Of a DNA stretch of 64,000 nt, positions 3,001 through 37,990 are shown piece after piece. Position 1 is the first letter of the stretch, and the number at the start of each line of letters is the position of its first letter. Origin of the DNA: Psammoneis japonica (lineage: Eukaryota); NCBI GenBank assembly GCA_008632985.1, contig QPGO01000032.1, positions 369,330 through 433,329 on the forward strand, read 5' to 3'. Below the pieces are notes generated by a model. The model ran no database searches. It was not told the DNA's origin and saw only the letters and a list, made by a program, of their open reading frames with translations. The translations under genes were made by a program, and so were the position numbers.

Positions 3001-3470
3001 AGTGATCTCCGAGAAGGACGACCCAGCAATTGACCCAGGAAAAGGTGAAAATTCCAGCAATGTGTCTAGCAAAACCCTGTTTCTCCAGTGATTCCTCCAG
3101 AAAACGCGCCATGCCACATCCAAAGTTACGCGCAATGAAGTGCGCGCAAAAAATCAAGAAACAGGAGGAAATTTGCTGGAACTTTCGCGTGCAGTGTTCC
3201 CCGGGATTGCCACCTTTTACCCTGCTTCATTGACCACTCAGTGGTTGGTGATTGCAGACTTTTTCATGTCGGTCCAGCAGTCGGGCAGTCGGGGGGTCGG
3301 GGGGTCGGGGGGTCGGGCAGTCGGGCAGTGGGGCAGTCGGGCAGTGGGGCAGTGGGGCAGTCGGGCAGTCGGGTTGTCCGTCTGAATTTGAAAGTGTGTC
3401 CCTTGGATTTTGAAAGGGTGTGGGTTGTTTAGTGCAGATGAATTCTTCGGATTCTTGGAATTGTCATTGA
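1..3470. repeat. TpA-depleted, CA/TG-rich degenerate domain (probably repeat/TE-derived); CpG partly retained
   Basis: Very few TA dinucleotides; overlapping ORFs are Tyr-free and Cys/His/Gln-rich; contains a ~196-bp tandem duplication (1835 vs 2031). Confidence 0.6.
3278..3373 (+). repeat. G-rich 8-9-mer tandem repeat (CAGTCGGG/CAGTGGGG/GTCGGGGG)
   Basis: Direct reading; multiple G3-G6 runs. Confidence 0.9.
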
Positions 3471-4229
3471 CATGAGAGGTTGTGGGGACATCCAAAAAAA
3501 TCGATAAATTCCCTACGACGGGCACGTGGCACGCTTTTTCAGGAGAGCTCGAAAGTTCTGAAAAATTGGGATTGCCGGCGTGGCATGTTCAAAAATGCAT
3601 TCAGTTATATACAAAGATAATTTATCGTGAATTCTACACGAAAAAGTCACATTGGGGAAAACATCATATCGAACAATAAGTGAGTTTGTGCGATGCGCTA
3701 TTATGGCGATAAATTGGAAAAAAAGAGTGTCCGTGCACCTCGCCACAGCCCCAAAAATGGCATGAGACATCAAATATAACGGTCATCCGCGTGACCGGTG
3801 CGGTGGCCACGCCACTCAGCCGCCACAATACCGGCCCCGGCGGTAGGGCCCTACGTACGTACAGGCAATACAGCATGCAACGGCACACATACACCCACAC
3901 CCACAAAGAAAGACAAGTGGTCAATGCTCCCCGCAGGCCTGGTTTCCGCGGGAAGGGTGAATTCCCGGGGAATAATCGCCACGAATTACCGTTCGTTATA
4001 TATATACTAAATGCATGTATAAAAAATAATACACTGGTAATTCCCCGTGCTTCCCCTCTCGTACATTTCTACGCGTTCTACGTGCCGGGACGTAGGAGCC
4101 AGACGATCGACCGACCGCAACAGCAAAAATGGGCAACACGCCATGGCGCGTTCGCATCCCATTTATGACGGCTATTGTCAATCAATCACGACACCGTTCA
4201 ATGTATTCGATGGTGTCGATTGAACGGGA

Positions 4230-6350: not shown

Positions 6351-6699
6351 CTTAAGTGTTTCGAATCATTTATGTTGCACCTTTTGGTATGACAAATAAT
6401 GTTGAAAGCACGCAAATGTTGACTTTCATTCGTACGGCTGCAAGCAGTAATTGCCCAACGAGTCATTGGTGTCTGAGAACGACAGTAGACTCACTGCCCA
6501 CTTTAAGTATGACAACCACTTCGGCCACAATAAATGTTGTGTGATCACTTATCAAACGACAATTCGGAGGTTCTTGCTTGGAGACCACTAACCCCGTTGC
6601 ATTTCGCCAAACTTCTCTCACACACAAAAAACAAAATCATCGCAAAGAGAGAACACTACTTTCGAGAAACCAAAACATTGACACTTCATTAAGAGAACA

Positions 6700-8017
6700 A
6701 TGCATTTCCTTAGCCTTGCTTTCCTCTTGGCTGCTTGCGTCATTGACGCCAGTGGATCGGTCTCTGAGGACAACAATGCCTTAGTAAGTGCTGCAAAAAC
6801 TGGAGTCATTCTCATTGAATTACACCCGTTCTCATTCGTATTCTTTGCTCGTCTATCAGGTGCAGCTTGAAGACCTACCTGAAGGCGGTCCTGATGTCGA
6901 AGAAGAACAAGGTGGTGTTGTCGTCTTGGAAGGAGACGAGCAAGAACATCGTTATTTACGACGGCGTCCGGGCGGCATAGACAATTTACCCCCAGGCGTC
7001 AGATTGGTACCGGGTACCGGGAGCAACAACACCTTAATCATGACTGTTTACGTCTGGTACTGGCTGGGGGGCAAAGATTTGTGCATCAATCCTATCGAGT
7101 GGTGCAACACTAAAGTTATCGAAAAGTTTCATTTTGCAGAATTGTACAGAGACGAACCTAATATCAGTGTGCTCTACGCAATGGTGGAAGCTGGAGCCAC
7201 CTGCTGGGCCCCGGCTAAGGCCCTTACAAGGATGAACGCCGTGGTTCATGGAAAAGCCGAACTCACCGTCAAGCAAATAGCACGCATCGGGCCAATCCCC
7301 GAAGTCAGTTTCAGATCGAGTTTAAGCACGTGTACACTGTCTGTGGCATTCGCGGGAAGTGAGTCCGAAGCTGCAGCTTTTTCTCAAGGGACAGCTGGTG
7401 CATCGGTTGAACCGAATGGAATATGCCAAAACCTCCCGCCTACTCACAGGTGGAGAAGACATCGTATGTGTACCTATGGAAGTGGAGAAGTGGAAGCTAT
7501 TGGAGAGGCTGATGCTATTAGCACCGCTTCCTCTTTCTCCAAGGCGCTTGCAGAGTCCAGAAATACTCATTTCGTAAGCGTGATATCCAAAGGCAGGAGT
7601 CTCGATTCCTTTGAAGCTGTTGTGATTGGAGGAGCGTCGAGCTTCACTGCGGTAAAAAGTAGATCAATTACTACTGCCATCACCGATGTCGTTGCCGATG
7701 CAGATAGTTACACTTGGATTCAAAACTGCATAGAGTGGTTGGTGGATTTCTGTGGTAGCCACCACTTTCCTTGGTGCGAGCCATATAAAATCCACGAGTG
7801 TTGTACAGAAGCAGAGGCAGAGGCCACTACGGCGGTCAAAGCCAACGCCGAAGCTTTTGCCAAGGCTGTTGCGAAATCATTCGGGAACCTCGAAATCTCA
7901 GTTGCATTTAATGCATTCTTGAGACGCAACGAACTTACGGGCGCTGTCGATATGGGCTTGAACATGAATTCTGGCTTTTCTGCAGGAGCCGTCACCACCT
8001 GTAAAGCTAAGATCTAG
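6700..8017 (+). CDS. Secreted uncharacterised protein, family copy A (~413 aa); exons 6700-6783, 6860-8017
   Basis: Exon 1 MHFLSLAFLLAACVIDASG signal peptide; GTAAGT..CAG intron 6784-6859 joins in frame to ORF 6788..8017; clear paralogy with the 24.3 kb and 45.3 kb copies. Confidence 0.85.
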
Positions 8018-8418
8018 AAGGAACGATGGAATGCCCTGAGCGATTAGGGTCGATGAGCTCGTCTTTTCGTTGGGTGTTGGATGATTGTTTGGAAGTGCAT
8101 AGTGCATGTTTAGTGGAGATCAGCAGCATTAGATGGATTAGATGAAAGTTACTGAAACGGTCTCATCATGAGTGACACAAGTTCAGAGGAGAAGACGGGC
8201 TGAAGCTTGTCTCGCAAATAGATAATACATAACATAGTTATCAAGCCTTTGTATGTGTTTTTCACGTACTTTGTCTTTGTTCACAGAACATTGGATCACT
8301 CGACGGGATCGCAATGAATTGCGGTGCCCGCAACAAACAGTTTCTCTTGTTCGTGCTGTACGAGCTAATCACTTAGAATCGTGAAGGAGAAGATCGGATT
8401 CGAAGGCTGTCGGCACGC

Positions 8419-8990
8419 CTTAATCATGACTGTTTACGTCTGGTACTGGCTGGGGGCGAAAGACTTGTGCATCAATCCTATCGAGTGGTGCAAAACAAAA
8501 TTTATCGAAAAGTTTCAATTTGCAGAATTGTACAGAGACGAACCTGATAACAGCATGGTCTACGCAATGGTGGAAGCTGGAGCCACCTGCTGGGCCCAGG
8601 CTAAGGCCCTCACAAGGATGAAGGCCGGAGTCAAAACGATTACTTCTGCCATCACCGATGTCGTCGGCGATGCAGATGGTTACACTTGGATTCAAAATTG
8701 CGAAGAGTGGTTGGTGGATTTCTGCGGTAGCCACCATTTCCCTTGGTGCCAGCCAATTAAGATCTGCGAGTATTGTAGAGAAGCAGAAGCCGAGGCCTAT
8801 ACCAGGGTCAGCGCCAAGGCCGAAGCTTTTCCAAGGCTGTTGCGGAATCATTCGGGAACCTCGAAGTTTCAGTTGCAATGAATGCGTACTTATCATGCAA
8901 CGAACTTACGGGCGCAATCGACATGGGCTTTGAACAAGAATTCTGGTTTTTCTGCAGGAGTCGTCACTACCTGGTAGAGCCAAGACCTAA
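8419..8990 (+). pseudogene. Family copy B: 5'-truncated, internally deleted (~420 nt), frameshifted
   Basis: Starts at IMTVYVWYW; jumps from LTRM to AGVKTITSA; -1 shift at ~8830 (gcttttcca vs gctttttcca in copy C). Confidence 0.85.
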
Positions 8991-9108
8991 AAGGAACGAT
9001 GGAATGCGTTGAGCGCACAGGGGCGATGAGCTCCTCTTTTCGAGGGTTGCTGGACGATTGTTTGTAAGTGCATGTTTAGTGGAGATCAGCAGCACAGAAT
9101 GGAGTTAT

Positions 9109-9483
9109 TGCACTCGTGCTACCGACGTCATATAGTCCTGCGCACCAAAGCCCGTTGCATGGGGCCCTAATTGCTTTTGGTTGCAAGTGTCATGTGCTTT
9201 TCAGCCTTGCTAAGTTCTCCTCTCGACTCACAATACAAGCCAAGGTAAAAGTTTGCACAAAATTCTTCTGCAAGACTGTGTGACGCAACGACGTAAAATG
9301 GCTAGCATGAGCTTTAGAGCAGAGAGACACAAGCACAAGACAATGCAGAGCAAAAGCACTTACTTTCCGCGGTGACCAGCTAAGGCGAGATCCTGTTCAG
9401 CAGCTTCTCCACGAAACAGCGAATAAATTGCGGGCCACACAAGAAATTAAAAACTTTGTTGAGAAACAGGCATGCATGCACCC
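9109..9483 (-). pseudogene. Duplicated 3' fragment of the TPR gene at 26098-27274
   Basis: Near-identical to ~26123-26490 (offset 17006 over most of its length), with an extra ggggccc insertion at ~9161. Confidence 0.9.
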
Positions 9484-10519
9484 GGAGCCGCCCAAACCCC
9501 GTGCATCATGTCCCATCTCTGTGCCTCTCCAAAACTGTTGCCCTCCCCCGCAGCAAGCAACTCAGCCACTGTTGCCATGAGATGCAATGGAAAGGCAACA
9601 GCCATGCTCGACACTCGACAAAACCTGCACTCGCAAGGAAGGAGAAAAAGACAAACATGCCGTTAGAGTTGCAACGATTTCACGATGCTGAGATCCCCGT
9701 TGTGAAAAATTCAAAGCAACGAATCTCTTTTAAACACAACAAAGAGACGTTCCGCACCTTGGACAGCCTGGAGTGGATCCTCCTTGAAGAAACAGCAATG
9801 AGCTTGCAAACAAAACACATGGCAGCAACACAAAAATGAGCAACAAAATGATGTTTCACGACACCTGCAGAGCCGCCATCCAAGATCCAGCATGTGGGCA
9901 ACATCAACACAATGACAGAGATGCGATGCGCGGGTGCACACAAAACACATGGAAATGACCTTTCCGATGAACCCATCATGGATTTTCACAAACAAAGCTG
10001 TGCACATGTTCTTGCAATGACTGCCATCCCATCAATGCCTTGTTCGCCAGCGTTTGAGGTCAAAAGCGTTGTCAATTGCAAAACTCAGGATGAGCGGCGC
10101 AGGTGCAGCAAAAACAATTTGTGTTTTTTGCCAACGCGGAACTCTGACGTCTCCTGCACTCTGCTGCATTTGAGTCAAGTGTCACCAAAAAAATCAACTG
10201 CCGATGTCATGATGTTTTTTTGTCAAAGAGCTTGAAATCTGCTTGATCTGCTTCCACTCACCTGAGAACTGCTCATTTGCAAAAAAACAAGCTCCTTGAG
10301 TGCAAGAAAATCTGTCATGGCCACGAGCGCCAATGCGCGATGTCGAGCCCACTTCTGTGAAGAACAGGTTCCATGTGCTTGTTCTTCCTTGATGTCACGT
10401 GCGTGTGCACCGCGTGCTTGTCCCACGCTGTTGCTGATTTTTGCTTGATTTTTGTGCAAATTGCTGGCAATGTGACAATTCGTTCCAACTCAAGCTTCCA
10501 AGCAGAAGGGGGGGGGGGG

Positions 10520-13500
10520 GGGTCACAGCAACTCACAAAGAACAACACACACAGAATCCATGCATGTTTTTGTGCTGCTGTGCAATGGATGACTCTGAGG
10601 TGGTGTGTTTGTGCTGCATGAGAAAGGAGGAAAAAGTCTGCTGTGCATGTGTGTGTGAATCTTGTTGTTTTTGTCAACATGTTTTTGTCAACACAACTCT
10701 CCAAATGTTCTCTGGGTTCCATCAAAAAGACCCCCAACACCACTGTCAGTCTGCAGCTGGGTGTGTTGGCAGGCCATGCCAGTTTGTCCTTTCACTCTAG
10801 AGATGGGAGAGCTTGAAGTTGCTCTCACTCTCTTTTCTGGCTGGGCAATGAAGAAACTTGGCTCCAGCCACACACAACTGCACCAGATGGGCCTCACAGT
10901 GCTCAACCACAGCTCTCATCTCCATGGGTCCACAGCAACCCATGAAGAACAATGCACAAAGAATCCATGCACGTTTTTGTGCTGCTGTGCAATGGATGAT
11001 TCTGAGGTGGTGTTCATGCTGCACGAGAAAGGAGGAAAAAGTCTGCTGCATGTGCGTGTGTGAATCTTGTTGTTTTTGTCAACACAATTCTCTGAATGAT
11101 CTCTGGGTTCCATCAAAGGCCCCCAAAACACTGCCATCAGTCTGCAGCTGGGTGTGTTGGCAGGCCATGCCAGTTTGTCCTTTCACTCTGGAGATGGGAG
11201 AGCTTGAAGTTGCTCTCACTCTCTTTTCTGGCTGGGCAATGAAGAAACTTGGCTCCAGCCACACACAGCTGCACCAGATGGGCCTTGCAGTGCTCAACCA
11301 CAGCTCTCATTTCTGTGGATTCTGCCAGAGAGTTCACCAACATTCTCAGTCTGCAGATGATGTCTTTGTTGGTTGCGTTGTCATTTGCTTTCACTCTCTG
11401 GAGTTGCAAGCCCCCCAGCTCTGTGTTGGGCCAAGTGATGGGCATTGCAGCACTCAGCCACATTTCTCAAAGTGTTCCCTGGGCTCCACCAGAGACCATC
11501 ATCATTGCTCTCATCCTGCAGTTGTTGTGCTGATTGATTGCACATCAGGGTGTCAATTCCCACTTGAATGTGGGAATTTCAGTTCTGGCTGTGGCATGAA
11601 TGAGAAACAACTGCTGGCTCCTTGCTGCTGCCCAAGATGAGTGCATCGCTCAACCACATTTCTCAAAGTGTTTCTTCCCCTGGAAGAGACCTCAAAGTCT
11701 CTCAGCCTGCAGCTGTTGGGCTGGTTGGTTGCATCAGGGTGTCCCATCCCATCACTCTGGAGTCAGGAATTTCAGCTCACTCTTGCATGGACAAAGTGAC
11801 TTGGGGGTGCAATTGCAGCCAATGAGCCATGTGACTCTCAACCGCTGCTCTCATGTTGCTTTCCAGACAACCCTGGGGACCTGTGATGCCCTCAAACTGC
11901 ACTTGTTTGGTTGGTTGGTTGGTTGCACAATTGTGTGTCCTTTCTCTCTGCAGCAGTTGGAATTTCAGGTCTCACTCTGGCATGCACTCAGTGAGTGGGG
12001 GTTGCATCTGGGCCACGTGTTGGTTGTTGCACCACTCTGCCACCAACCTCAACATGTTCCCTGGGTTCCAACTGAGATCTTCAATGCTCCAAGCTTGCAG
12101 TTGTTTGCTGGTTTGTTGCATGAGAGTGTCCTTTCACTCTGGAGTCAGGAGTTTCAGCTCTCAATCTGGCATGGATGAAGTGACAGGTGGCTGCAACTGC
12201 ACCAGATGATCCTTCTTGCAACACTCCATTGCCATTCTCAAAGCTTTCCCTGGGTTCCTTTGAAGACCTTCAAGGCCATCAGCATGCAATTGTTGGGTCA
12301 GTTGGTTGCATCTGAGCATTCTTTCTCTGGAGTGTCAGGAGTTGCTCTGCGCTCACTCTGGCATGCACCCAGTGCCTGGTGGCTGCAAATGCACCAGATG
12401 AGCCTTCTTGCAACACTCCGCTGCTGTTCTCAAAGTGTTCCATGGGGTCCTCTGAGACCTTCAATGCCCTCAGCATGCAGCTGTTGGGTTGGTTGCTTGC
12501 ACCAGGGTGTTCTTTCTCTGAGGATTCAGGAGTTTTTCTGCTCTCTCTCTGATGGCAGGTGTTGAGTGTCTGGTGGCTGTAAATGCACCAGATGGGCATT
12601 GCAACACTCCACTGCCACTCTCAAAGTGTTCCCTGGGTCTCTCTGAAGACCTTCAATGCCCTCAGCGTGCAGCCATTGGGCTGGTTGTTTGTTCTTTCAG
12701 GGTGTCCCATCACATCACTCTGGAGTCAGGAATTTCAGCTCACTCTTGCATGGACAAAGTGACTTGGGGGTGCAATTGCAGCCAATGAGCCATGCAACTC
12801 TCAACCGCTGCTCTCATGTTGCTCTCCAGACAACCCTGGGAACCTTTGATGCCCTCAAACTGCACTTGTTTGGTTGGTTGGTTGCACAAGTGTGTGTCCT
12901 TTCTCTCTGCAGCAGCTGGAATCTCAGGTCTCACTCTGGCATGCACTCACTGAGTGGGGGCTGCATCTGGGCCACATGTTTGTTGTTGCATCACTCTGCC
13001 ACCAACCTCAACATGTTCCCTGGGTTCCAACTAAGATCTTCAATGCTCTGAGCTTGCAGTTGTTTTGCTGGTTTGTTGCATGAGGGTGTCTTTTCACTCT
13101 GGAGTCAGGAGATTCAGCTCTCAATCTGGCATGGATGAAGTGACAGGTGGCTGCAACTGCACCAGATGAGTCTTCTTGCAATGCTCCACCACTGTTCTCT
13201 AAGTGCTCCATGGGTTCCTCTGAAGACCATCAATGCCCTCAGCATGCAGCTGTTGGGTTGGTTGCTTGCATCAGGATGTTCTTTCTCTGAGGAGTCAGGA
13301 GTTGTTCTGCTCTCACTCTGGCATGCATTGAGTGTCTGGTGGCTGCAAATGCACCAGATGGGCATTGCAACACACCACCACCACTCTCAAAGTGTTCCCT
13401 GGGTCTCTCTGAAGACCTTCAATGCCCTCAGCATTCAGCTGTTGGGCTGGTTGTTTGTTTGCATCAGGGTGTTCTTTCTCTGAGGAGTCAGGAGTTTTTC

Positions 13501-15610
13501 TGCTCTCACTCTGGCATGCATTGAGTGTTTGGTGGCTGCAACCATGCCAGATGGTCCTTGCAACACTCCACCACCATTCTCAAAGTGTTCCCTGGGTGCC
13601 TCCAAACAACTTCAATGCCCTCAGCATGCAATTGTTGGGTTGGTTGTTTGCATCTGGGTGTTCTTTCACTGTTGATTTGGGAATTTTCTGCTCTCACCAT
13701 TTTTCCATTTAGTGTTTGGTGGCTGCAGCCGCACCCCAGATGGGTGTCCCAACACTCCACCACCACTCTCAAAGTGTTCCCCGGGTGCCTCCAAACAACT
13801 TCAATGCCCTCAGCATGCAGTTGTTGTCTTGGTTGTTTGCATCTGGGTGTTCTTTCACTGAGGACTCAGGAGTTTCTGCTCTCACCATGTCATGGATCAT
13901 GTGTCTGATGGTTGCAACCGCACCAGATGGGTGTTGCAACACTCCACCACCACAATGCTTTCAGCATGCAGTTGTTGTGGCTTGGTTGTTTGCATCAGGG
14001 TGTTCTTTCACTGTGGATTTGTGAGTTTCTGCTCTCACCATGTCATGGATTGAGTGCCTGGCAGCTGAAACTGCACCAGATGGGCATTGTGACACTCCAC
14101 CACTGTTCTCAAAGTGTTCCCTGGGTCCCTCTGAAGACATTCAATGCCCCCAGCATGCAGTTGTTGGGCTGGTTGTTTGCATCAGGGTGTCATTTCTCTC
14201 AGGAGTCAGGAGTTCTTCTGCTCTCACTCTGGCATGCATTGAGTGTCTTGCAGCTGCAACTGCACCAGATGGGCCTTGCAACACTCCACCACCACTCTCA
14301 AAGTGTTCTCTGGATGCCTTTGAAGAACTTCAATGCCCTCAGCATGCAGTTGCTGGCTTTGTTGTTTGCATCAGGGTGTTCTTTCACTGTGGATTCAGGA
14401 GTTTCTGCTCTCATCACTCAGCATTCAGCTGTTGGGCTGGTTGTTTGTTTGCATCAGGGTGTTCTTTCTCTGAGGAGTCAGGAGTTTTTCTGCTCTCACT
14501 CTGGCATGCATTGAGTGTTTTGCAGCTGCAACTGTGCCAGATGGTCCTTGCAACACTCCACCACCATTCTCAAAGTGTGCTCCCTGGGTGCCTCCAAATG
14601 ACTTCAATGCCCTCAGCATGCAATTGTTGGGTTGGTTGTTTGCATCTGGGTGTTCTTTCACTGTTGATTGGGGAGTTTCTTCTGCTCTCACCATGTCATG
14701 GATTGAGTGTTTGGTGGCTGCAGCCGCACCCCAGATGTGTGTTCCAACACTCCACCACCACTCTCAAAGCATTTCCCGGGTGCCTCCAAATGACTTCAAT
14801 GCCCTCAGCATGCAGTTGTTGGGTTGGTTGCCTGCATCAGGGTGTTCTTTCTCTGAGAAGTCAGGAGTTTTTCTGCTCTCACTCTGGCATGCATTGAGTG
14901 TCTGGTGGCTGCAACCGCACCAGATTGGCCTGGCAACACTCCACCACCATTGTTTGCATCAGGGTGTTCTTTCACTGAGGATTCAGGAATTTCTGTGCTC
15001 TCACCATGTCATGGATTAAGTGACCGGTGGCTGCAGCTGCACCAGATGGGCCTGCTGGCAACACTCCACCACTGTTCTCAAAGTGTTTCCTGGGTTTTTC
15101 TGAAGACCTTCAATGTCCTCAGCGTGCAGTTGTTGGGCAGGTTGTTTTCATTGGGGCGTTCTTTTGCTGTGGATTTAGGAGTTTCTGCTCTCACCACTTT
15201 TAATGGGCCAAGCAACCGGTGGTTGCAGCTGCGCCAGATGGGCCTGGCAACACTCCACCACCATTCTCAAAGCATTCCCTGGGTTCCTCCAAAGACCTTC
15301 AATGCCCTCAGCATGCAGTTGTTGGGATGTTTGGTTGCGCTGGGGTGTTTTTTCACTGTGGAGGAGTTGGGGGTTTCAGCTCTCACCATGGCATGGATCA
15401 AGTGACTGGGGGTGCAAGTGCTCCAGATGAGCCCTTCAACACCCACCCACCCCATTCTCAAAGGTGGGAGACCTTCAGTGCCCTCAGCATGCAGCTGGGT
15501 GGTTGGTTGGTTGCGTCAGGATGCTCTTTCACTGGTGGCTTTGTCCAGCACAGCTGCGCTGGGCAAGTCTTGCAACTTGCAACTCTCAACTGCTGTTCTC
15601 AAGTGTTCCC
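10520..15610. repeat. Tandem satellite, ~190-193-bp monomer, with ~410-bp and ~964-bp higher-order duplications
   Basis: Recurring gcaacactccaccacc..ctcaaagtgttccctggg..cttcaatgccctcagcatgca at ~12218, 12410, 12601, 13367, 13560, 13750 etc. Confidence 0.9.
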
Positions 15611-18600
15611 TGGCTTCCAAATGACAAACCGCCAAGCAAATTCTGGTGTGTCATGTGGAGTTTGGTGTGCTGTTGCATGTTGGACATTGGCGACATGACA
15701 GTTGGGGCTTGGACAACTGATGTGACATGGTGTTGGAGGGAAGCTTGATGGGTCATCCTCCAATGGCACTCACTTGTTGCAAGTGGTCGCAACAGGCCTC
15801 AGAGTGTCTTTGGGATCATTGTGTTGTTGTCATGCCAGCACTGTGAGTGGCTGAGTGATCCTCACACAGAGCTGGATTTGTTCAATTTTTGCTGCCCAGC
15901 ATGACATTTGATCACACTTGCATTGCAACATTTGTTTCATTTGTCCTGACGAACAAAAATCAAAAATGGGTCAAGCACAAATGAAAGCAGAACAAAGTGC
16001 AAAAAGTGAAAATTCATGAGATTAGATTTTGCTCAATCATTTTGGGTTTCTCTGAACAAGTTCTCAATCATGGCCCAAAGCTTCTGCACTGCTTCCACAG
16101 ACCAAATGTCTGCAACATGTTTCCGTGCTTGACAAGAGTGCAACTTGTCAATGACTGAAATTTTTCACATGCGTGCTGATTGCATGCACAGATCTTCAAC
16201 ACACACAATTGTCAATTTTGTTTCTTGGCACACAAACAAACAAATCTTTTTTGCTTGTTTTAAGCCACCTGTGTGGCTCATTCTGTCCACATTTCAAACA
16301 CTTGTCAAGAACAGTTTCACTTTCCCCCCTTCCATTTGTCAGATCCATGCCTTTGTTTGAGTTGCCTGTTTGGCTCACACAAGTGTTTTCTCTGTGTGCT
16401 GCAGTTTGCCACTTGCAGAGCAAAAATGAGTCTTTGACCAATGCAGCAGCTGCAAAATCAATTCTGTGATGTGCTTGTTGAGTGCAAGACCCAGACAAAC
16501 AACCCAGGTGAGAGTGAACAATTGCTTGTTGCCACAGTGTCTCTTGAAAATGATGTGAATGTCACTCAATGCATTGTTCATGCAGCGTGGCACCACACAG
16601 GTGCAGTCTCATTTCAGTTCGGAAGAAGGGTGGGTTCCAGTTTTGGGTGGTTGAGATCCACACTTGTGAGCAAAAAAGAAAAAAAAGAATGGACAATGTG
16701 CACCCTTGGTGTGACACAATCATCTTGTCAATGATGTGAGCCATGCTCACAGATGTTGAACAGATGGTTGTGGGTCTGGAACATCTTTTTGGAAGCCAGT
16801 TTTGGATGCTGCCTTTTGGGGAGCAACTGGCAAAAGGACACAGGTGACTTCAACTGTTTTCATGGGTGCCGCCAACTTCTGTTGTGTGCAAGTGACACTC
16901 ACAGGGTGTGGTGCAACAGTGAGGGGGTTGTTGCAGGTGTTTCATCATCCTGCTGTTTGACATGATGACTGCACTCATTCTGGCTGGTGCAAGGGACTCT
17001 TGGGGCTTTGTTTGTCTTTCTTGATTGTTTTGTCCCATTTCAACAACTGCGTCATTCAACAACAATGACAGGTGCACTGGACTGGGCATTTCAGTGAAAA
17101 AACAGACATTGATGCATGTGTTTTCTTGGCATGCTGGAGTTTGCCAGTTCAAACTGTCGTGGCATGTTGCGTCTCCTCAAGGTCATGGCGCACAGCTCCC
17201 AGTCACAATTGGCTGTTGACAGCACTGGTCCACACTGCTTTGTCAAATTGCCCATCAAAAAATCCATTCTCATCATGGCAGCAATGATTTCCAGTGCTGC
17301 TTGGAGCCTTGCAGAGAGAGCTGCCTGCACACACCAAGTTCCAGATCAATCCTGCTGTCAAGCTTGAATGTTGCCAGTTGCATTTGTTGACTCTTGCCAT
17401 TTGTCACATTCAATGTCCTTCCACACAGCAGATGCTTCCTGCACTGTTGCAAAGCCTTCAATCCACAATGTCAACAAACTGCACATCATTCCGTGTGAGC
17501 AAATGATGAAAATGGTTGTCCAACAGAAGTGTTCTGGCCAGCTGTCATCAATTGCCTGTCTCACTGGCAGCATTTTTTACAGTTTGATCCCAATCTCAGA
17601 AGCGCTGTCTGCTTGAAAATGCCTCTTCCCAGACAATGTGAACAGTTTGAGCTGTGCTCTGAATTGACTTGGTTGGAGCTGGCATGTTCACATGATCCAA
17701 GGTCCAACTGCCCACAGCTCCTCAGGAACTCGCACAAATTTTTGACACCTGATGACTGCACAGGATTGTCTCATGCAGCATTAGAAGGTGTTGTTTGAGC
17801 CATTGATTGAAACTTTTGGATGGTTCAATGCAGACATTCAGTTGATTTGATTGTCACAAATGATCATGACAAGCAAGGATTGCTTGTGTTTTTGACATGG
17901 AAAACAAAACCAAAGAAAGATCTGGTGCCTTTCTGCATCATCTTTGTTGAATGTGCCATCCAAGTCATGGGTGTCTGCAGAGTGCATTCCACTTTAGACC
18001 TTCAAAACATTTGCTGCAGCATCCAATGCAGAAGAAACAAAGATGTTGAGTGAAAAGTTCAGATGATGATCAAAGACATTGAATGAAGATGCCTTTCTTT
18101 GGGACACCCACCTTGTGATCACAATGACATTTCAACATGCTCTCCAGGTGTTTCTTGCACTTGGCGGCAACTGTTGCCACCACCGCAACTGATCCCATGA
18201 TCAACTTGAGTTGCATTGCTTGCATGTCTGCATTTTGGAAAGAAAAAGAATTGATTTTATGGGTTGTGAGCGTTTTTGTCAAAAACCACAGCAATGGCCG
18301 CACGGACATGGCCCAAAAGCATCATGTTGAGTCACCTGTGTGGCTCATTTTGTCCTCATTTTGAACTCTTGTTAAGAACAGCTTTGTTTGTTTTTTTCCT
18401 TCACACGTCAGATCTCTGCCTTTGCTTTAGTTGCCTGCATGGCTCATTTTGTCCTCATTTTAAACCTCTCAAGAACAGCTTCATTTGTCTCCTTTTCCCT
18501 CCATTTTGTCAGCTCTCTGCCTTTGCTTTGCTCTGTCTCTGCTGCACCTGTCCTTTTTTCCTGCTGGGCACTGCACAACTCATCCTCTGATCTGACATCC

Positions 18601-19419
18601 ACCAACAACAATGGCGTGCCTCTGTCACAATCCACCTTGTTGTCCTGGTTGGATGTGTGACAATGACACAACAACAACAGCCGTGCTCTCCAAAGACATT
18701 TTCTCAAAGGCATCTCCAGTGCTCTTCTTTCTCCATTTTGGCCTGAACCCTGATGATGACTTTGAGAAGCACACCCCCAGTGCTGCAGGAAGAGAAGCTT
18801 GGATGCAAACTTGCCAAGGGATGGTCTTTGCATCTCATGAAGCAAGCAATGGCACACCTGCTTGGAAAGCCAGCCACTGCCAGATGACAGAGACTGGGAA
18901 GATTGTCTCATCTTCTTCCCTGTCACCATCACCACAAAGGAAGACAATGACCAGAGTTCATCAGCCACACATCCTCAGTTCCAAGGGGTTCATTCTGGCA
19001 TTGAGTTTGATGACATGTCTTGGTGTCTTCTCCAATTGGAGCAACAGGCTTGCCAAGTGGATGGCGCATGATGCACAGGACAACACCACTTGAGAAGCTA
19101 AAATGGAGCATGTGGTGGTGTCCTCATGTCCCAGCAAACATTTGCCAAATGCCAAGCCAGATCATCATCATTGCCACAAATGCACATTGGTTTGACTTGC
19201 TGCCTGCATGACATGCAACCCAAATGCACTCAGAGTCCAGTTGATGAGTGGCCCAATTGTGATGTCTTTGCTCTCTTGATTTGGGAAGCTGCCAGCCTTG
19301 TCTTGGGCAGCAGCATCCCCTTGCATGATTCCTCCACAAACAAGAAGATGCCCAGCTGTGCAAGGTGTGGAAGCATGAGGCCCACAGAGGATGTGGCAAA
19401 GGAGGTGTGCAGTTGTCTT

Positions 19420-20630
19420 GGGATGGAATTGGAGGACTCCAGTGGGTTGCCAGGGACATGCCAACAACCATGGTTGGGGAGCAGCAAATGCCTTGACTTG
19501 TGTCAATGCAGCACCTTGTCTCTCTGACATGACTGGCTTTGGCCCAGCCAGCCAACCTGCAGAGACAATGGAAACATCTGTGCAACAGCACAAGTGCTCC
19601 ATTGTCTTGGGGGGTGACATTGGATGACTCAGTTGGGTCCCAGAGGATGCAATGACAAAAATGGTTGGGAAGCAAAGGCCTTGTCTTGTGTCAATGCAGT
19701 CCTTTGTCTCTCTGACATGAATGGGTTTGGCCCTGCCCACCCACCTGCAGAGACAAGAAAACCATCTGTGCAACAGTGCAAGTGCTCAGTTGTCTTGGGA
19801 CGGCTTTTGGCAACTCCATTGGATGATCCCAGAGAAGCCAACAACAACATTGGCTGGGAAGCAAAGGCCTTGGCTTGTGTCAATGCAGCCCTTTGTGTCT
19901 CTCTGACATGACTGGCTGGGTTTGGCCCCGCCACCCCACCTGCAGAGACAAGAAAACCATCTGTGTGCTCAGCTGCATTGGGGTTCTTTTGGCGACTTCA
20001 TTGGATCACAGAGGACACAGCAACAATGGCTGGGAAGCACATGCCTTGTCATCTTGTGTCAATGCAGCACCTTGTCTCTCTGACATGACTGGGTTTGGCC
20101 CAGCCAAGAACCAATTTGCAAGAAAGAAAGGGATCCATCTGCGCAACAGCGCAAGTGCTCAGTTGTCTTGGGATGGCTTTTGGTGACTCCGTTGGATCCC
20201 AGAGGAGCCAACAACAACAACGGCTGGGAAGCACATGCCTTGTCTTGTGTCAATGCAGCACCTTGTCTCTCTGACATGACTGGGTTTGACCAAGCCAAGA
20301 ACCAACTTGCAAGAAAGACAAGGGAGCCATCTGTGTGACAGCACAAGCACTCAGTTGTCTTGGGATGGGCACAAAAAACTTCATTGGGTCCCAGAGGAGG
20401 CAAGAACAACAATGGTTGGGAAGGAAAAGCCTGATCTTGGGCCAACACAGCTGCTTTTCTGTCTGATGTGATTGGCTTGTTGCTTTGGCCCAGCCACCTC
20501 ACCTGTGGAGACAAGGGAGCTTTCTGTGCCGTGTTGCAGTGCAAGTGCACAGTTGTCTTTGGACAGCCTTGCTTGGGTGCCTCCAAAGTGTCCCAGAAGA
20601 GCCAACAACAACCAGGACAGGGAATCACTG
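19420..20630. repeat. Tandem repeat, ~189-bp monomer, ~6 copies
   Basis: ttgtgtcaatgcagc..tgtctctctgacatga at ~19499, 19687, 19876, 20055, 20245. Confidence 0.9.
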
Positions 20631-23600
20631 AATGGAAATTCACAGTGTTCCCTGTCTCTCATTTGGGCGGAAAACCAAGAAAGAGCAGAAGAGCAAGACC
20701 CACCTTCAAGTTGCCCACTTTCTTTACAAGGTTGGTCTCCAAAGTTTTCATTTCACTGGCATGAAGGGTCTGTTTTTAAGCTTTCTGGAGAGAGGCAATT
20801 GTTTTGTTGGCAGCGGCAATTTTTGAACACACCAAATGGCAAAAAGGTGTTGATTGAGGTCCCGGAGCTGGGAGTGTGCAGCATGAGTGTGAAAATTGTT
20901 TCAATCTTCCAAGAACACATTGATGCAATAAAATCAAGATTTTTGAATGCATGTGTGACATTGGTGACTAGCTGAATGATTCGTCGAGGCAGTTTCAGAT
21001 CATTCAAGCCATCGTGTTGCAATGAAATCATTGACTTTTAAAACAAAGTCATTGCTGAAGACGAGATGCCAACAGGAAGAATCAACTGATGGTCAGGCTC
21101 GCATTTTGGCCAAAAACATGAATGGTCACTCCCTCACAAGACACAAAAATTGCAAACTCAAGTTGCATCCGACATCTGACAATGAGAGCAGTGGGGACAG
21201 GCAGTGGCATTGCGGATGGGACAGAATAAAATGCAGGACACAAGGTGAGAAAAACAAGTGGCAAAGGCATGGGGATCGGGTGTGCAGTGCAAACATCTGA
21301 CACTTGTGCACATCTTTGCATGCAGACGTCTGGACATGCAACCAAGGGCACAAAGGTGGCAGAAGCAGCACACAAGATGAGATTGCAAGAAAAACAAGAA
21401 ATGCACAAAACCTGGTCATTGGCACAAAGAGTTTTCTCTTGTTGCAGGCAACGCTTTGGCCTGCCAAACAGAAAGAGCACAGGGTGGATCATTGCAGAAT
21501 GATGTTGTTGCCTGCTGGTCCAGACGATTGTGAAGAGAGCAAGAGTGGTTGCAAGGGAGGACCAAAACACCACACCCATTGTGTGGAAACTGTGAAGGAC
21601 AACAGGAACTGGTGGAATGCAGGAGAAAAGAAGAATGGGAGGAAAAAGGGAGCACTGTTTGGTGTGCAGTGTAGAAATGACAAAAAAGAACATTTGCAAA
21701 TGAGATGACAAGCAGCACACAGCCAATGCACAATCAGGTCAAGAAGACAAATGAACATTGTGAACACATGGTTGTTGAGAAAGAAACAAGTGCAAGTGAC
21801 AAGTTTCACTGAGTGTCATTTCCTGCCTGGAAGGTCAGCCCAATTGTGGACAGACACACAAAAACAATGTCAAAACAGGCAGACATGAAAAATTGACAAG
21901 ATGTGTGTGTGATGTAACTGATTTGCACCAACCATTAAATCCCACTTGAAAGGTTCAAACAATGATTAAACTCCCTTTGTCAATGACTGTCAAGGACTTG
22001 TCAAGAACACATGATTCTGAACAAGAGAACATGAGTTCTGAACAAGAGCCACAACATTTTCCAGACAAAGGCATTTCAAAGAACACAATCATGACAACAG
22101 ATTGCCTGGATGTGACTGCAATTGACACACAAGATGTCAACATTGTCAAGTGGCTGCATTTGCAATTTCCAACATCCAATCCATCAATTCTGTGTGACTG
22201 ATCTGCCCTTCATGTGAACCCACAATTGATGTGTGATTGAAGTGCAACAATGTCAAAACACATGTGCACACACAAAATGTGCGTGACAGTGCACATTGCA
22301 ACAAAACAGCCACCTGGAAAAGGTTTGAAATCTTGATGTTGAGCATTTTTTAAAAGACAACAGCTTGCAGCTGTGAGAGAAATGTGCACAATTCAACAGA
22401 TGTCATTGGCACCTCAATCCTGTGCTCAGATGCTTGCACAGAAAAAAGTGAGAGATGGCACGTGACGCTCACACATTGTTTGCCTCTTTCTCTTCACAAG
22501 GATCGTTGCAAACACAAAGAGATTGAAGATCTGAAAGATCAGCAGTCAGCCCAAGATGCTGCTGGGAAGAAGACAATGACAATCTTCACACTGAGATCCC
22601 ACCCTTTAGAATCTGCACTTGTTTTTGAGGGGCTTGAAAAAATCTGCACCTGCTCCAAACAGAAATCTGGAATCTGCACCCCAGCGCAAATGTGTGCTGG
22701 ATGTGCACAGAACATGCCAGGCCCACCTGGGAAAGGGTTCTTCAAATCCAACAAAACCCAGTGCCATTTTCAACAGAGAATCAGCACAAATGTCTAGAAT
22801 CCTTGAAAATGTGCACCCGCTCCAAACCAAAATCTGGGGTGCAGATTTTCTGTGATGATCAGGGTGCATGGATCCCATGTTTTGTGATGTCTGCCGCGGC
22901 GCTGCACAGTGCTTTTTGGGCACAACTGTCAGCAATGAAGCCCTGGCAAGCACCGCCACAATGCAAAACACTGCTCATTGCAATGCACTGGTGGCCATTG
23001 TTGACAACAGACAATGCAGGTGGCCAGAGAAACCTCAAGGAGCTCCATGTTGACAAGTGCATCTGTTGGACAACTTTCTCCCAACTTGGGCTTGTTGTGA
23101 ACTCTGTTGGACAGAATGTGCTCGTGGAACAAGAGACCATGAAAGCTTGTCTCTTTGTCCTTGAGAGTTGAGAGTGTGTTCCCCAGCGACATTTGCCTCA
23201 CTCATTGCATGCAACAATGCAGTGTTTTGAGTGTTTTGGCAACTGTGGGCTCTGCTGCCTGCAGCCAGATGAGCCAGCCACTGGACAAACACACTGCGCC
23301 AGTTGCAACTTGCTTGCACCCAGCAAGTCATGACAATCAAATTTCCACATCCAGTGACATGGTCCCCAATGGTGCATGCCTCACTCATCCAATGACACAG
23401 TGTTCAATGTGCTCCAGTGATCAGGCTTTGGACAATCTGCTGCCAGATGAAAGTGCAATGTCAAAACAAACTGCACAGCAAATCGCGGCAATTGATTTTT
23501 CCTTGTCTGGTTTTCTCATCTTTTCTCATCCAAGGAAATTCAGGGCCAAGTGAGAAAAAGCTGCAACAGAAAACCCTGGAGACAGATGATCTTTTAGAGA

Positions 23601-24297
23601 ATTGTCGAGCTCTCTGCACACGACCTTGATGTGCAACAAAGACATCATCTTGACAGCTTTTTCATTTTGGTCGGCCACCGCAAAGCATGCAAAGGAATTG
23701 GCAACAACTTCAAAAGAGGGAAGTTCCTGCAAAAGTTGCCTCCACATGCAAAATTGTGATGTCAGTTTTACAAAGACACACAAAAATGACAGTGATTGAG
23801 AAATTTGGCAGCAGCCAAGATCCTGACAAAGTGTTTGAAAGTTCTCTTTTGCGCTTGTTTCTCCACCATCACAACTCATCATCTGGCATGATGTGTTTGT
23901 TGTTCACCAAGCCTGAATGCCGCAACACCCAAGGATGGCTCACCCTTCCTCTGGCTCTAATTGCCTGCTCTTGTTTGGCACGCCACAACTTGTTTTGCTT
24001 GTGCAAAGTGTTGTCTCTCTTTTTTTTTTGTCAAAGTCATTCAAACGCCACGGTAATTCTAGGACAAACATACATGGAGAGGACCCTTTAGTCATTTCAC
24101 TTTCGACAAATGTCTGTAAAGTGCCAGCAGTGTGATGAACCTTGTGATCATTTATCAAGCGACACGAGACCACTAACCACTAACCCCTAACCCCGTTGTA
24201 CTTCGTCAAAACGCTTCTCGTTTCTCTTACACGAAAAAGCAAAGTCATCGCAACGAGATAGAACACTAAAACGTTGACTCTTCATTAAAAGAGAACC

Positions 24298-25617
24298 ATG
24301 CGTTTCTTTACCCTTGCTTTCCTATTGGCCGCTTTCGCCATTGGCGTCAGTCGATCGGTCACTGAGGAAAACAATGCATCAGCAAGTGTTGCATGAAAAA
24401 ATGGAGTCTTTCTCATTGAATTATCCCCGTTCTCATTCGCATTCCTTTCTCGTCTATATCAGATGCAGCTGGAAGACCCATCTGAAGATGGTCCTGTTGA
24501 AGAAGAACAAGGTTATGTTGTCGTCTCGGAAGGAGACGAGCAAGAACATCGCTATTTACGACGCACGAGACCCTCTGGTAGAGGGGCGTTACCCGCTGGC
24601 GTCACCGTCGTGCCGGGTCCCCCGGGCATGATCACCATTATTTTGAGGGTTTACGTCTGGTACTTGCTGGGGGCGAAAGACTTGTGCATCAATCCTGTCG
24701 AGTGGTGCAACACTAAAGTTATCGAAGAGTTTGAATACGCAAAACTGTACCAAGACGAACCAGATGCGATTGCGGTCTACGCAATGGTGGAAGCTGGGGC
24801 CACCTGCTGGGCACAGGCTAAGTCCCTCTCAAGGCTAAACGCAATGGTTTATGGGCAAGCCGAGATCAGCTTCAAGCAAACAGGACGTCTCTTTCCAGAC
24901 CCCGAAATCGCCTTAAAATCGAAGTTGCATTCGTGTACACTGTCTGTGGCATTCGCCCGAAGTGAGTCCGAAGTTGCAGCTTTCTCTCAAGGGACAGCTG
25001 GTGCATCGGTGAAACCGAATGGAATGTGCAAAACCATCCCGCGCTTTCATAGGTGGTACAAGCGTCTCTGTACCACTGGACATGGAGAAGTGGAAGCTGC
25101 TTTCGAGGCTGATGCTCTTAGCGTTTCTTCCAGTTTCTCCCGTGCGCTTGCAGAGTCCAAAAATTCACCGTTAGTGAGCGTGATATCCAAAGGCAGGATC
25201 ATCCATTCCTTGGAGGCTGTTGTGGTTGGAGGAGCGTCGAGCTTCACTCGGTCCAGAGCCAAATCGTTTACTTCTCCCTTCACTGATGTCATCGCCGATG
25301 TAGATGGTTACACTTGGATTCAAAACTGCATAGAGTGGTTGGTGGACTTCTGCGGTTCTCATCGCTTTCCTTGGTGTGAGCAAGTGAAAATCAACGAGTA
25401 TTGTAAAGATGCAGAAGCAGAGGCCCATACCAGGGTCAGCGCCAAGGCCGACGCTTTTTCCAAGGCTGTTGCGGAATCATTTGGGAACCTCGAAGTTTCA
25501 GTTGCAATGAATGCGTATTTCAGACGCGACAAACTTACGGGCGTACTCGACATGGGCTTGAACAAGAATTCTGGTTTTTCTGCAGGAGTCGTCACTACCT
25601 GTACAGCCAAGACCTAA
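24298..25617 (+). CDS. Secreted uncharacterised protein, family copy C (~412 aa); exons 24298-24381, 24463-25617; GC-AG intron
   Basis: Exon 1 MRFFTLAFLLAAFAIGVS; donor GCAAGT at 24382 where paralogues have GTAAGT; exon 2 is the intact ORF 24463..25617. Confidence 0.8.
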
Positions 25618-26097
25618 AAGGAACGATGGAATGCGCTGAGCGAACAGGGGCGATGAACTCGTCTTTTCGCTGGGTGTTGGACGATTGTTTGGAAGTGCAT
25701 GTTTACTGGAGATCAGCAGTCCAAAATGGAGTTACTGAAAAGGTTTTACAATGAGTTGAGAGGAGAAGTTGGCTTGACTTGTTGACTCTGTGGCGTTGTC
25801 TCAATACTTAAAACGAATTTCGACCTAATTCATCTCTCCTGTTGTGTCTGAGAGAGAGTATTTGTGTGGGTGCGTTTACAAAAGGATTTCGTCTGATTTT
25901 TTTGAATGATCAAGCTAGTAGTTAGTACCAGGTATCTAATGGGGTGTCAGCCAGTTGTTTACTCTAGAGTAGCTCGGTGCCACACCAATTTATTATGTAC
26001 GTTCTCGGCAAACCCGTTTTCCTACTACTCGTCTTTTTAGTGGCACTTCATCCAGTTTCCTTTTGGCATTGTTAAACGAGCTACCAACCTTTTCTTT

Positions 26098-27274
26098 TTA
26101 CGCCCATCCTCGCAACTGGCAGTGCACTCGTGCTACCGACGTCATGTAGTCTTGCGCACCAAAGCCCGTTGCATAATTGCTTTTGGTTGCAAGTGTCATG
26201 TACTTTTCAGCCTTGCTAAGTTCTCCTCTCGACTCACAATACAAGCCAAGGTAAAAGTTTGCATAAAACTCTTCTGCAAGACTATGTGACGAAACGACGT
26301 AAAATGGCTAGTATGAGCTTTAGAGCAGAGAGACATAAGCACAAGACAATGCAGACCAAAAGTACTTACTTTCCGCGGTGACCTGCTAAGGCGAGGTCCT
26401 GTTCAGTAGCTTCTCCACGAAACAGCGAATAAACGGCGGACTAATACAAGAAATCAAAAACTCTTTTGAGCAACAAGCATGCATATACCGACAACCAGAC
26501 AACACAAGCAACATACCATAATTTTTCTGCGATCGGATCTTCCTCTTGGTAAGGACATCATGTCGGGAGGAGGAAGCGTCTTTGGATTGAGCTGCGACAA
26601 GCAAGCAATGTCCCACACAATTTCTTCGACATCCTGTGAGAGAAAAACGAAATAATACGTCAGGATGAAGCGAAAGCAGCGCATACGGTAGCACTGAGGC
26701 AGTTGCGACTTACTGCAGGATTGACTCTTACGTCGTATCGGAACTGCAGAGAGTGACAAGGCAACAATAGTCAATCGTGTTTGAGAAAGAAAAATAGGAA
26801 AACAAAGAAAAATAGGTGCTTTCAATTACCTGATCGCTCCCCTCCTTGAAACGATTCGCGTAATAGTAGCTAATTCCACGCTGCCATAGAAAAGGGCGGA
26901 GAGCACTGTCTGCCCGATCAACCTGATCGAACTTTTCAATCGAGCCCTCGACTGATCGTTATAATGAACAGAGTCAAAACAGAGAACAGAGACAAAGCAT
27001 GAGAAAACGGCATACAGGAACTGATAAGAAGCAGTGATAACTTACTGTCACCCTCCTTAAAGAGCTCCATGCCCTTTGCCAGTAGTTTACGTGGTGGTAT
27101 GGTGGTTGTAGAGATGTCATTGGTGGCCACCATGTGCATCGGGGTACGCCTTGAACGTGAAAACGCCGGCTTGGAATTCAATGACCTCGAGAACGCCTTG
27201 TTGTTCACAACAAGTGAACCGTTCGTCGGTAGCATCCAACATTGTAGAAGAGTCAAGATCATATACGTCCTCAT
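26098..27274 (-). CDS. Multi-exon TPR (NlpI-like) protein, probably plastid-targeted
   Basis: Spliced translation MRTYMILTLL..GMELFKEGDIEGSIEKFD..PFLWQRGISYYYANRFKEGSDQ|FRYDVRVNPA|DVEEIVW..|SAVYSLF..|EEFYANFYLGLYCE..DYMTSVARVHCQLRGWA*, with GT-AG introns; resembles the plant/bacterial 'LWQRG..DYM..A.VHC' TPR family. Confidence 0.8.
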
Positions 27275-35486: not shown

Positions 35487-35699
35487 CGTGTTTCGAAGCA
35501 CGAATGCCTCCATGCGCGAATTTTTGGAAGGTGACATTTCTAGCGGTACTTGACAGAGCTCGCTATAGAACTGGCAACCTCTGTCATAGAACTGAGAATC
35601 TTGGAGAACGAATGCCCTGTCCCCCCTCTCTCTCTCTAAACACATGCAACTTTGTCCCACGTACAAGAATCCAAAGTTAGTCTCGCGCCATCCGCTGAT

Positions 35700-37860: not shown

Positions 37861-37948
37861 TCCTCTAGAAAGGGGGAAGTGGAGACCAACGCTGTGCCAT
37901 CTCAACGAGGCGTTCGACGGGGGCTCGTCATGATTGTCGAGTGCCCGT

Positions 37949-37990
37949 TGAATGAATGAATGAATGAATGAATGAATGAAAATGAATGAG
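37949..37990 (+). repeat. (TGAA)n microsatellite
   Basis: Direct reading. Confidence 0.95.

Follow-up and report, generated by a model that had tools for sequence, protein, structure and literature searches.

The window analysed here is a stretch of 64,000 nucleotides from Psammoneis japonica (contig QPGO01000032.1 of assembly GCA_008632985.1, positions 369,330 to 433,329, forward strand), within which a block at 9480-24030 has lost nearly all of its TpA dinucleotides. The block is probably diatom nuclear repeat and satellite DNA that has been rewritten in place by strand-symmetric, long-lasting point mutation, perhaps through adenine deamination of the TadA/ADAT2 kind. The components of this interpretation differ in standing. 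A mutation process that acts in situ and turns TAY into TGY (Y, pyrimidine; R, purine; N, any base) is very probable in itself, while the adenine-deaminase chemistry that we infer for it is tentative and held with somewhat less than even confidence. In the proposed scheme, the A of 5'-TAN-3' would be changed to G on either strand, so that TpA becomes TpG, or CpA when the other strand is hit. Adenine would be converted to hypoxanthine in DNA and then read as G, the conversion being catalysed by a TadA/ADAT2-like deaminase aimed at repeats under silencing. A second component removes CpG, most strongly at T[C]G (target base in brackets) and over a narrower core; its cause would be either decay of 5-methylcytosine or a cytosine side activity of the same enzyme. 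An initial annotation had already singled out this block and proposed TAY as the target; the scope of the present analysis is this one window.

Per-kilobase dinucleotide counts reveal two kinds of DNA in the window. Ordinary DNA has observed/expected ratios of about 0.5-0.7 for TA and about 0.8-1.2 for CG, whereas six depleted domains show 0.00-0.08 for TA and 1.6-2.35 for CA and TG, with CG at 0.05-0.23 in the domain cores. These domains add up to 29,055 of the 64,000 bases. Their GC content resembles that of the remainder (0.486 within versus 0.473 outside), their edges are sharp at a scale of 200 bases or finer, and the loss is limited to discrete regions. The domain of principal concern is the following:

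9480-24030 (no strand assigned): main block, a TpA-depleted multi-copy repeat domain, defined by dinucleotide counts, the list of TpAs and contig depth.

Over the whole block, TA stands at about 0.03 of expectation and CA/TG is approximately doubled. The last dense TpA lies at 9448 and dense TpA begins again from 24054, in agreement with the limits given in the initial annotation. The longest TpA-free run within the block spans 1782 bases, which at the TpA density found outside would arise by chance with a probability of about 3e-34.

The ordinary parts of the window carry eukaryotic genes, namely delta-14 sterol reductase, HAT1, pieces of an ABC transporter and a class-3 lipase. The sterol reductase fragment shares 76-78% identity with its best protein hits, the named ones among which are diatom proteins, and the window is therefore read as diatom nuclear DNA that has no close relative in the protein collection.

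The TpAs that survive in the block are few and strongly biased in context. They number 36 against about 630 expected, and 27 of them (75%; 95% confidence interval 58-88%) belong to the class YTAR (11 TTAA, 9 TTAG, 4 CTAA and 3 CTAG), the remainder being 5 RTAR, 4 YTAY and no RTAY. Outside the domains, YTAR accounts for only 288 of 1514 TpAs (19%), beside 412 RTAR, 404 YTAY and 410 RTAY. The excess in the block relative to this outside DNA is highly significant (Fisher p=1.3e-12; binomial p=5e-13) and persists when a flat mononucleotide composition, with 25% expected in each class, is taken instead. When expected NTAN counts are obtained by scaling the outside-domain sequence by length, the observed/expected values in the block are 0/171 for RTAY, 5/172 for RTAR, 4/168 for YTAY and 27/120 for YTAR, and a flat mononucleotide baseline leads to the same verdict. 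Equal depletion of all NTAN classes, which the initial annotation had named as the outcome contrary to its claim, is rejected (likelihood ratio 108, 3 degrees of freedom, p=3e-23).

The observation on which that annotation rested, that the rare TAs of the block are mostly YTAR, is thus borne out. All 15 positions it gave as YTAR are YTAR to within 1 base, and its three exceptions are real (12580 GTAA, 17578 TTAC and 18258 TTAT). Its list was accurate in these 18 positions and incomplete beyond them, as 18 further TpAs occur at 9664, at 9731 and at 16 sites between 20725 and 23958; these comprise 12 YTAR and 6 exceptions. The survivors are more than fresh back-mutations, because the Y..R context makes up 23.5% of core CA/TG as compared with 75% of surviving TpAs. 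They are also 2.15-fold enriched for A two bases after TA. The least saturated part of the block, 20700-22000, accounts for 11 of its 36 TpAs, among them 5 of the 9 non-YTAR survivors, and may be younger or less strongly targeted.

The other five domains of the window provide an independent replicate:

1-3600 (no strand assigned): depleted domain, cut by the window start; TpA about 0 throughout, the CpG count per 200 bases growing from 1-3 to 8-12 as 3600 is approached.
4200-6200 (no strand assigned): depleted domain; TpA nearly gone, CpG mostly kept.
35800-38000 (no strand assigned): depleted domain with a direct repeat on either side (35565-35811 and 38204-38439); both single Ns of the window fall here.
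56600-62900 (no strand assigned): depleted domain, from dinucleotide counts; it contains 2709 bases without any TpA (59100-61809), a longer run than any other in the window.
63600-64000 (no strand assigned): start of a depleted domain, from dinucleotide counts, cut by the window end.

Together these domains retain 2 of 170 expected RTAY, 12 of 171 RTAR, 6 of 168 YTAY and 25 of 119 YTAR (Fisher p=1e-7). The order predicted by the initial annotation, RTAY << RTAR = YTAY << YTAR, is accordingly seen both in the block and in the five other domains.

The class pattern is explained by a simple per-strand rule. In a two-strand model with 4 parameters for the 16 NTAN classes, each strand's T-A-N is lost independently and its survival is set by the 3' base; this model fits with a deviance of 10.8 on 12 degrees of freedom (p=0.54). 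Modelled survival per strand is 0.62 for TAA, 0.32 for TAG, 0.10 for TAC and 0.06 for TAT, so that the loss rates by 3' base follow the order T >= C > G > A, at approximately 2.8 : 2.3 : 1.1 : 0.5 (-ln survival). TpA survives best where neither strand presents TAY, that is, in YTAR, and the leftovers are therefore mostly TTAA, TTAG, CTAA and CTAG. However, YTAR is itself 78% depleted in the block, and this class is the one in which both strands offer slow substrates. The proposal of TAY as the target consequently holds as a preference, with backing from four independent lines (survivor contexts, product balance, the paralogue edge and young duplicates, of which the last three are given below), but not as an exclusive one, since TAR is hit as well, more slowly. 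Likewise, the dependence on the 3' base is real but graded, T >= C > G > A, and does not behave as a switch between pyrimidine and purine.

The direction of change can be read from the products. The loss of TpA is offset by a gain of CA/TG. A is lost only where it follows T, there being no depletion of AA, CA or GA, and T in TG, TT and TC is unaffected. Sites of the RTAR and YTAY classes distinguish rival products, because TAY→TGY yields YTGY/RCAR and TAY→CAY yields RTGR/YCAY. In zones that lack TpA but retain most CpG, RTAR+YTAY falls by 22.4 per kb, while YTGY+RCAR rises by 20.9 and RTGR+YCAY by 7.7; the product balance favours TAY→TGY. A before/after comparison is available at the left border of the block:

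9109-9479 (+ strand; compared segment 9109-9483): inner edge of paralogue A, partly hypermutated; its partner at 26123-26490 is 91% identical.

Across the last 285 bases of paralogue A (9195-9479), 10 sites that are TA in the far copy are TG or CA in the copy near the block, and 2 sites show the opposite. All 10 of these changes, every RTAR and YTAY case included, correspond to TAY→TGY on one strand, the direction resting on parsimony and adjacency to the block, as this stretch has no outgroup. Both strands are hit equally, with 542 YTGY and 485 RCAR in the block. No strand-coordinated runs of TG versus CA occur in five domain stretches (|z| <= 2.2), which gives no sign of processive single-strand events; the pattern fits many independent single-site events on either strand.

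An A→G change on one strand and a T→C change on its partner are inseparable in sequence data, and the same products could arise from thymine chemistry. 5-Formyluracil can mispair with G. If the T of R-T-A were oxidised, for example to 5-hydroxymethyl- or 5-formyl-uracil by a dioxygenase of the TET/JBP type, mispairing with G would lead to T→C. Such an enzyme would need a strict reading of the 3' A, given that T in TG, TT and TC is spared, and the authors of a preprint on the chlorarachniophyte Bigelowiella natans, as its main text presents it, read their measured case as A-deamination (Mettrop et al., bioRxiv 10.64898/2026.01.13.699255, 2026). Thymine oxidation is considered very unlikely.

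Duplicated sequences inside the domains record when the changes took place. The relevant features are the following:

10523-11322 (+ strand): young tandem duplication of about 400 bases (copies 10523-10931 and 10930-11322), from self-comparison.
11427-15550 (+ strand): Satellite I, about 20 diverged units of 189-193 bases; many homologous dinucleotide columns mix CA and TG.
19400-20650 (+ strand): Satellite II, units of about 189-191 bases.

The two copies of the young duplication are separated by 33 transitions and 2 transversions; CA-versus-TG doublets account for 10 of the differences. Among seven of nine duplicate pairs (two with overlapping ranges being left out), CA versus TG makes up 40 of 47 double-transition dinucleotide differences, CC/TT, CT/TC, AT/GC and AG/GA contributing 7 in total; these seven pairs, older copies included, differ by 303 transitions and 162 transversions. 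A CA/TG doublet between copies implies an ancestral TA or CG that was resolved independently in each copy, which places the changes after the duplication. The low-TpA composition was thus acquired and is not intrinsic. The flanks of the doublets (R..R 12, R..Y 6, Y..Y 13, Y..R 9) do not show the expected split between R..Y for TA and Y..R for CG, a comparison that has low power near saturation.

Satellite I extends this evidence to newly arisen sites. Among 17 aligned units of 11427-15550, changes away from the consensus include 248 transversions, which by their context should create 31 TpAs and 35 CpGs; only 5 and 1 are seen. CA-creating changes number 61 against 29 expected and TG-creating changes 56 against 37, while most of the other 12 dinucleotides lie at about 0.5-1.5 of expectation. 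Newly arisen TpA and CpG are therefore removed as well, which argues for a long-term balance under a strong standing bias and not for one old burst. What the initial annotation took as mutagenesis near saturation is more aptly described as a long-lasting balance.

These duplicates also bear on the possibility that no special process exists, either because the DNA is foreign or under selection and intrinsically poor in TpA and CpG, as in viral UpA/CpG avoidance, or because modified bases have produced a sequencing or assembly artefact. The two single Ns fall within one domain and the reads come from one sample, both of which would suit an artefact. Against it, the CA-versus-TG doublets between domain duplicates imply an ancestor with TA or CG, ordinary paralogous DNA has been converted at the block edge, and the depletion is strand-symmetric in non-coding satellites. 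Furthermore, in a public DNA run (X1), contigs at about single-copy depth (~55-82) match pieces within the block with 0 differing letters, whereas a strand-discordant base should give mixed calls. The run may be the sample behind the window assembly, so that this match counts against a consensus artefact and is not an independent confirmation. An intrinsic or artefactual origin is close to refuted.

Contig depth in run X1 further characterises the block. Summed over contigs of at least 85% likeness, depth is 219-2992 in 22 block bins and 108-202 in 8 flanking bins; with single-copy depth at about 55-65, the block reaches 4-50 times single copy. The block is accordingly a multi-copy sequence in this genome, and its aligned copies differ from one another by 819 transitions and 436 transversions. 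Besides the satellites, the block contains:

15551-19400 (no strand assigned): unclassified high-copy repeats without a credible Pfam domain, from contig depth and self-comparison.
20651-24030 (no strand assigned): unclassified repeats, from the TpA list and contig depth.

A Pfam scan of 228 stop-to-stop open reading frames (ORFs) of at least 70 aa in the domains returned no credible viral or transposon domain. Four candidate rows, Colicin_V (16.4 bits, cut-off 29.3), Ntox30 (22.7, cut-off 25), PRC2_EED_ins (26.8, cut-off 27) and SMK1_alpha_su (30.3, cut-off 27, in a satellite ORF), were taken as compositional chance. Stop triplets in the block consist of 19 TAA, 13 TAG and 333 TGA, which leaves TGA as effectively the sole stop, and chance ORFs of 244-290 aa are by estimate to be expected where TGA is the only common one. 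Many ORFs of 200-290 aa in the domains are accordingly chance products that might pass for genes. Neither tRNA genes nor Rfam families reaching the gathering score were found.

The surroundings of the domains show some regularity. Each of the two domains that lie wholly in the window with mapped flanks has ordinary DNA in the form of direct repeats on its two sides. The main block sits between paralogous segments A (6181-9482) and B (24129-26489), which are 80-91% identical, and the domain at 35800-38000 sits between ~250-base repeat copies and also between tandem CAAX-protease-like paralogues. In these bracketing repeats, TA→TG/CA changes are restricted to the left-hand copies, at their inner edges. 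A Cys-containing protein of ~400 aa is encoded by three paralogues on the + strand, at 6788-8017, 24397-25617 and 45409-46215, the first two flanking the block; the proteins at 6788-8017 and 24397-25617 have no Pfam domain and, by eye, no deaminase-type H-x-E / P-C-x-x-C motif. When the window was collapsed to purines and pyrimidines and compared with itself, no inverted repeats appeared, and apart from the paralogue flanks the depleted domains showed no hidden homology to normal DNA.

Several smaller features of the window may be noted. Its only Ns are the single bases 35986 and 36843, both within the domain at 35800-38000. Depleted domains are separated at 3601-4199 and 62901-63599 by islands of about 600-700 bases in which TpA density is normal or high; the edges of these islands are sharp to within about 100 bases. 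A microsatellite at 3277-3373, with 12 copies of the 8-base unit GCAGTCGG, keeps its CpGs within a TpA-depleted zone. In ordinary DNA, the low-complexity stretch at 48600-49000 is rich in CTAG/TAG, with 31-36 TpAs and 1-2 CpGs per 200 bases, a composition opposite to that of the depleted domains.

CpG is lost together with TpA, but not over the same extent. Domain cores retain 135 CpGs of 1095 expected. Per-strand CpG survival depends on the 5' base (T 0.185, A 0.33, C 0.33, G 0.62; a flat model is rejected, p=1.5e-10), T[C]G being the most depleted CpG context. C outside CpG is not depleted, TCA, TCC and TCT included. In TpA-only zones, CpG has already fallen from 52.9 to 34.7 per kb, and its contexts rank in the same order (YCGR 0.60, mixed 0.64, RCGY 0.76). 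The left margin of the block illustrates the separation of the two losses:

9480-10481 (no strand assigned): margin with TpA loss only; 2 TpAs and 40 CpGs in 1 kb, depth about 260-290, 4-5 copies.

At 10481, CpG density drops abruptly from about 35 to about 3 per kb, with TpA unchanged. TpA loss thus extends beyond the CpG-depleted core by about 1 kb at 9480-10481, with a similar overhang in 1-3600 and 4200-6200.

It can be proposed that one bifunctional TadA/ADAT2-like deaminase, with a required 5' T, attacks T[A]Y as well as T[C]G; the smaller extent of the CpG core would then reflect a slower cytosine reaction or a higher dose there and not a separate methylation-driven process. For both targets, the context with the strongest depletion has T on the 5' side, and the partial CpG loss in the TpA-only zones follows the context order of the cores. 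A single enzyme for both components is conceivable because amphioxus ADAT2 is described as deaminating both C, at TCG, and A in DNA (PMC10354150). Nevertheless, the abrupt CpG step at 10481 leaves TpA as it was, and YTAR survival is nearly equal in margin and core (0.30 and 0.18) although CpG loss differs about five-fold between them in -ln terms. C in TCA, TCC and TCT is also spared. The unlike edges argue for two processes and, together with the YTAR survivors in the core, make one enzyme for both losses other than the simplest reading; we regard a bifunctional deaminase as unlikely.

The wider extent of TpA loss also recalls somatic hypermutation, in which AID and polymerase eta combine cytosine deamination with mutation of A:T at a 5' T/A preference over a bounded region. 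By analogy, deamination of 5-methyl-CpG would create T:G mismatches, and error-prone long-patch repair would mutate A:T pairs nearby, so that TpA loss could spread the observed ~1 kb past the CpG-depleted core. The polymerase-eta hotspot, however, is WA, i.e., TA and AA, and AA is untouched here (observed/expected 1.0-1.5 in domain bins). The spectrum of that pathway is not confined to transitions, as A→T and A→C also arise, whereas the changes here are nearly all transitions (33 to 2 in the youngest duplicate). In addition, domain 4200-6200 has lost TpA with little CpG loss. Repair-coupled mutation accordingly carries only a very slight probability.

The closest known parallel to this loss of TpA comes from mutation-accumulation lines of B. 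natans. As reported in the main text of the preprint, two viral-derived regions gained 231 mutations in these lines, of which 230 were A→G or T→C, all of these on TpA according to the authors; the rate was about 1000 times the background, and the enzyme proposed is an ADAT2 homologue (Mettrop et al., bioRxiv 10.64898/2026.01.13.699255, 2026). The two systems share A:T→G:C change at TpA giving TpG/CpA on either strand, confinement to discrete regions, almost exclusive transitions (as in the youngest duplicate) and TpA-poor clusters rich in CpA+TpG as the long-term trace; by the window thresholds of that preprint, 27 of the 64 1-kb windows here qualify. They also differ. The B. natans rate was measured de novo, while the process described here is deduced from the end state. 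The targets there are a single-copy giant-virus insert and a virophage insert, in which TpA is described as mildly lowered (Rho 0.45) or not lowered (bioRxiv 10.64898/2026.01.13.699255), whereas here multi-copy repeats and satellites have been brought to about 0.03 of expectation. Unlike in B. natans, G:C→A:T changes are elevated here too, as the loss of CpG in the cores indicates. The terms 'CpG', 'trinucleotide', 'context', 'flanking' and 'diatom' are all absent from the main text of that preprint (bioRxiv 10.64898/2026.01.13.699255), and relative to this text the 3'-base rule, the co-loss of CpG and the diatom host are new.

Repeat-induced point mutation (RIP) of Neurospora and other ascomycetes offers a second comparison. 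RIP is recognised by a high TpA/ApT and a low (CpA+TpG)/(ApC+GpT), and both indices are reversed here (0.045 in the block versus 0.70 outside, and 1.93 versus 1.21, respectively). Like RIP, the present process introduces transitions into both strands of repeated DNA and keeps to domains, from which it leaks to some extent into adjoining sequence, and the domains are multi-copy; yet paralogues A and B, at 80-91% identity, are unmutated except at one inner edge. RIP converts CpA to TpA and leaves an AT-rich product, whereas here TpA is destroyed by A:T→G:C change and GC content is little altered. Hypermutation of repeats targeted to TCG has been described in basidiomycete fungi. Such mutation, or the decay of CpG in methylated repeats, resembles the CpG→TpG/CpA component here, with T[C]G most affected, but it explains that component only and not the loss of TpA. 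Diatoms are described as methylating their transposable elements and as carrying DNMT4 enzymes related to the RIP factor RID, with function unknown (PMC9998398).

As for the candidate enzyme, TadA and ADAT2-ADAT3 convert A to I, which is read as an A→G change, with T/U immediately 5' of the target, and here only A after T is affected. The natural site of bacterial TadA is U-A-C-G, which corresponds to a TAY site, and engineered adenine base editors are DNA-acting forms of such deaminases. The tRNA substrates of eukaryotic ADAT2/3 mostly have a purine after A34. Amphioxus BjADAT2 is described as deaminating C at 5'-TCG-3' in DNA and also A, with GAA as its adenine motif in E. coli, and natural TadA is presented in the same paper as having no action on DNA (PMC10354150).

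Several points weigh against the proposed explanation as a whole, its TadA/ADAT2-like chemistry included. The TAY preference resembles bacterial U-A-C-G more than the mostly U-A-purine sites of ADAT2/3, and the adenine motif described for BjADAT2 is GAA and not TAY. Chemistry at the T of R-T-A fits the sequence data equally well. TpA loss and CpG loss lack common edges, and a single-dose model predicts far fewer YTAR survivors in the core than the 0.18 found there, as compared with 0.30 in the margins. Moreover, the baseline for the expected counts is flanking genic DNA, which may differ from the ancestral composition of the repeats. Finally, the B. natans target is viral DNA, and here the DNA is multi-copy with no credible viral or transposon domain among its 228 ORFs.

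A wider proposal, judged somewhat unlikely, is that diatoms possess a genome defence based on a natural DNA adenine deaminase. This TadA-like enzyme would act at 5'-T-A-Y-3', and possibly at T[C]G, on both strands of silenced repeats over many generations until TpA is erased to completion, and it would be shared with the rhizarian Bigelowiella and predate the split of stramenopiles and Rhizaria, as an 'adenine RIP' of SAR (stramenopiles, alveolates and Rhizaria). In the literature found, no TpA-depleting hypermutation of diatoms is reported, the relevant works being the B. natans preprint and the amphioxus ADAT2 paper. Among 47 diatom-like metagenome loci around ERG24 relatives (247 kb), 0 of 222 1-kb windows pass the B. 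natans thresholds, a weak negative, since repeats are rare in metagenome contigs and the loci include no close relative (76-78% best protein identity). TA observed/expected falls below 0.2 in 1 of 424 overlapping 1-kb windows of the same loci, and that locus has 66% GC.

The findings have consequences at several levels. Spurious long ORFs in dead repeats can mislead the annotation of genes and repeats in diatom genomes. The 3'-base order T >= C > G > A constitutes a quantitative fingerprint that is testable on the de novo mutations listed for B. natans, and it narrows the search for the enzyme by lying nearer to the bacterial TadA site U-A-C than to the usual eukaryotic ADAT2/3 sites. A natural adenine deaminase of chromosomal DNA, if it exists, would be of interest to base-editing research. 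TpA loss extends further than the loss of CpG and may be an earlier or more widespread mark of silent chromatin than methylation-driven decay. In the literature found, TpA-specific hypermutation has so far been reported in one preprint and one chlorarachniophyte; a second, distant lineage, in which the loss is complete over 45% of a 64-kb window, would make it a candidate for a widespread eukaryotic genome defence.

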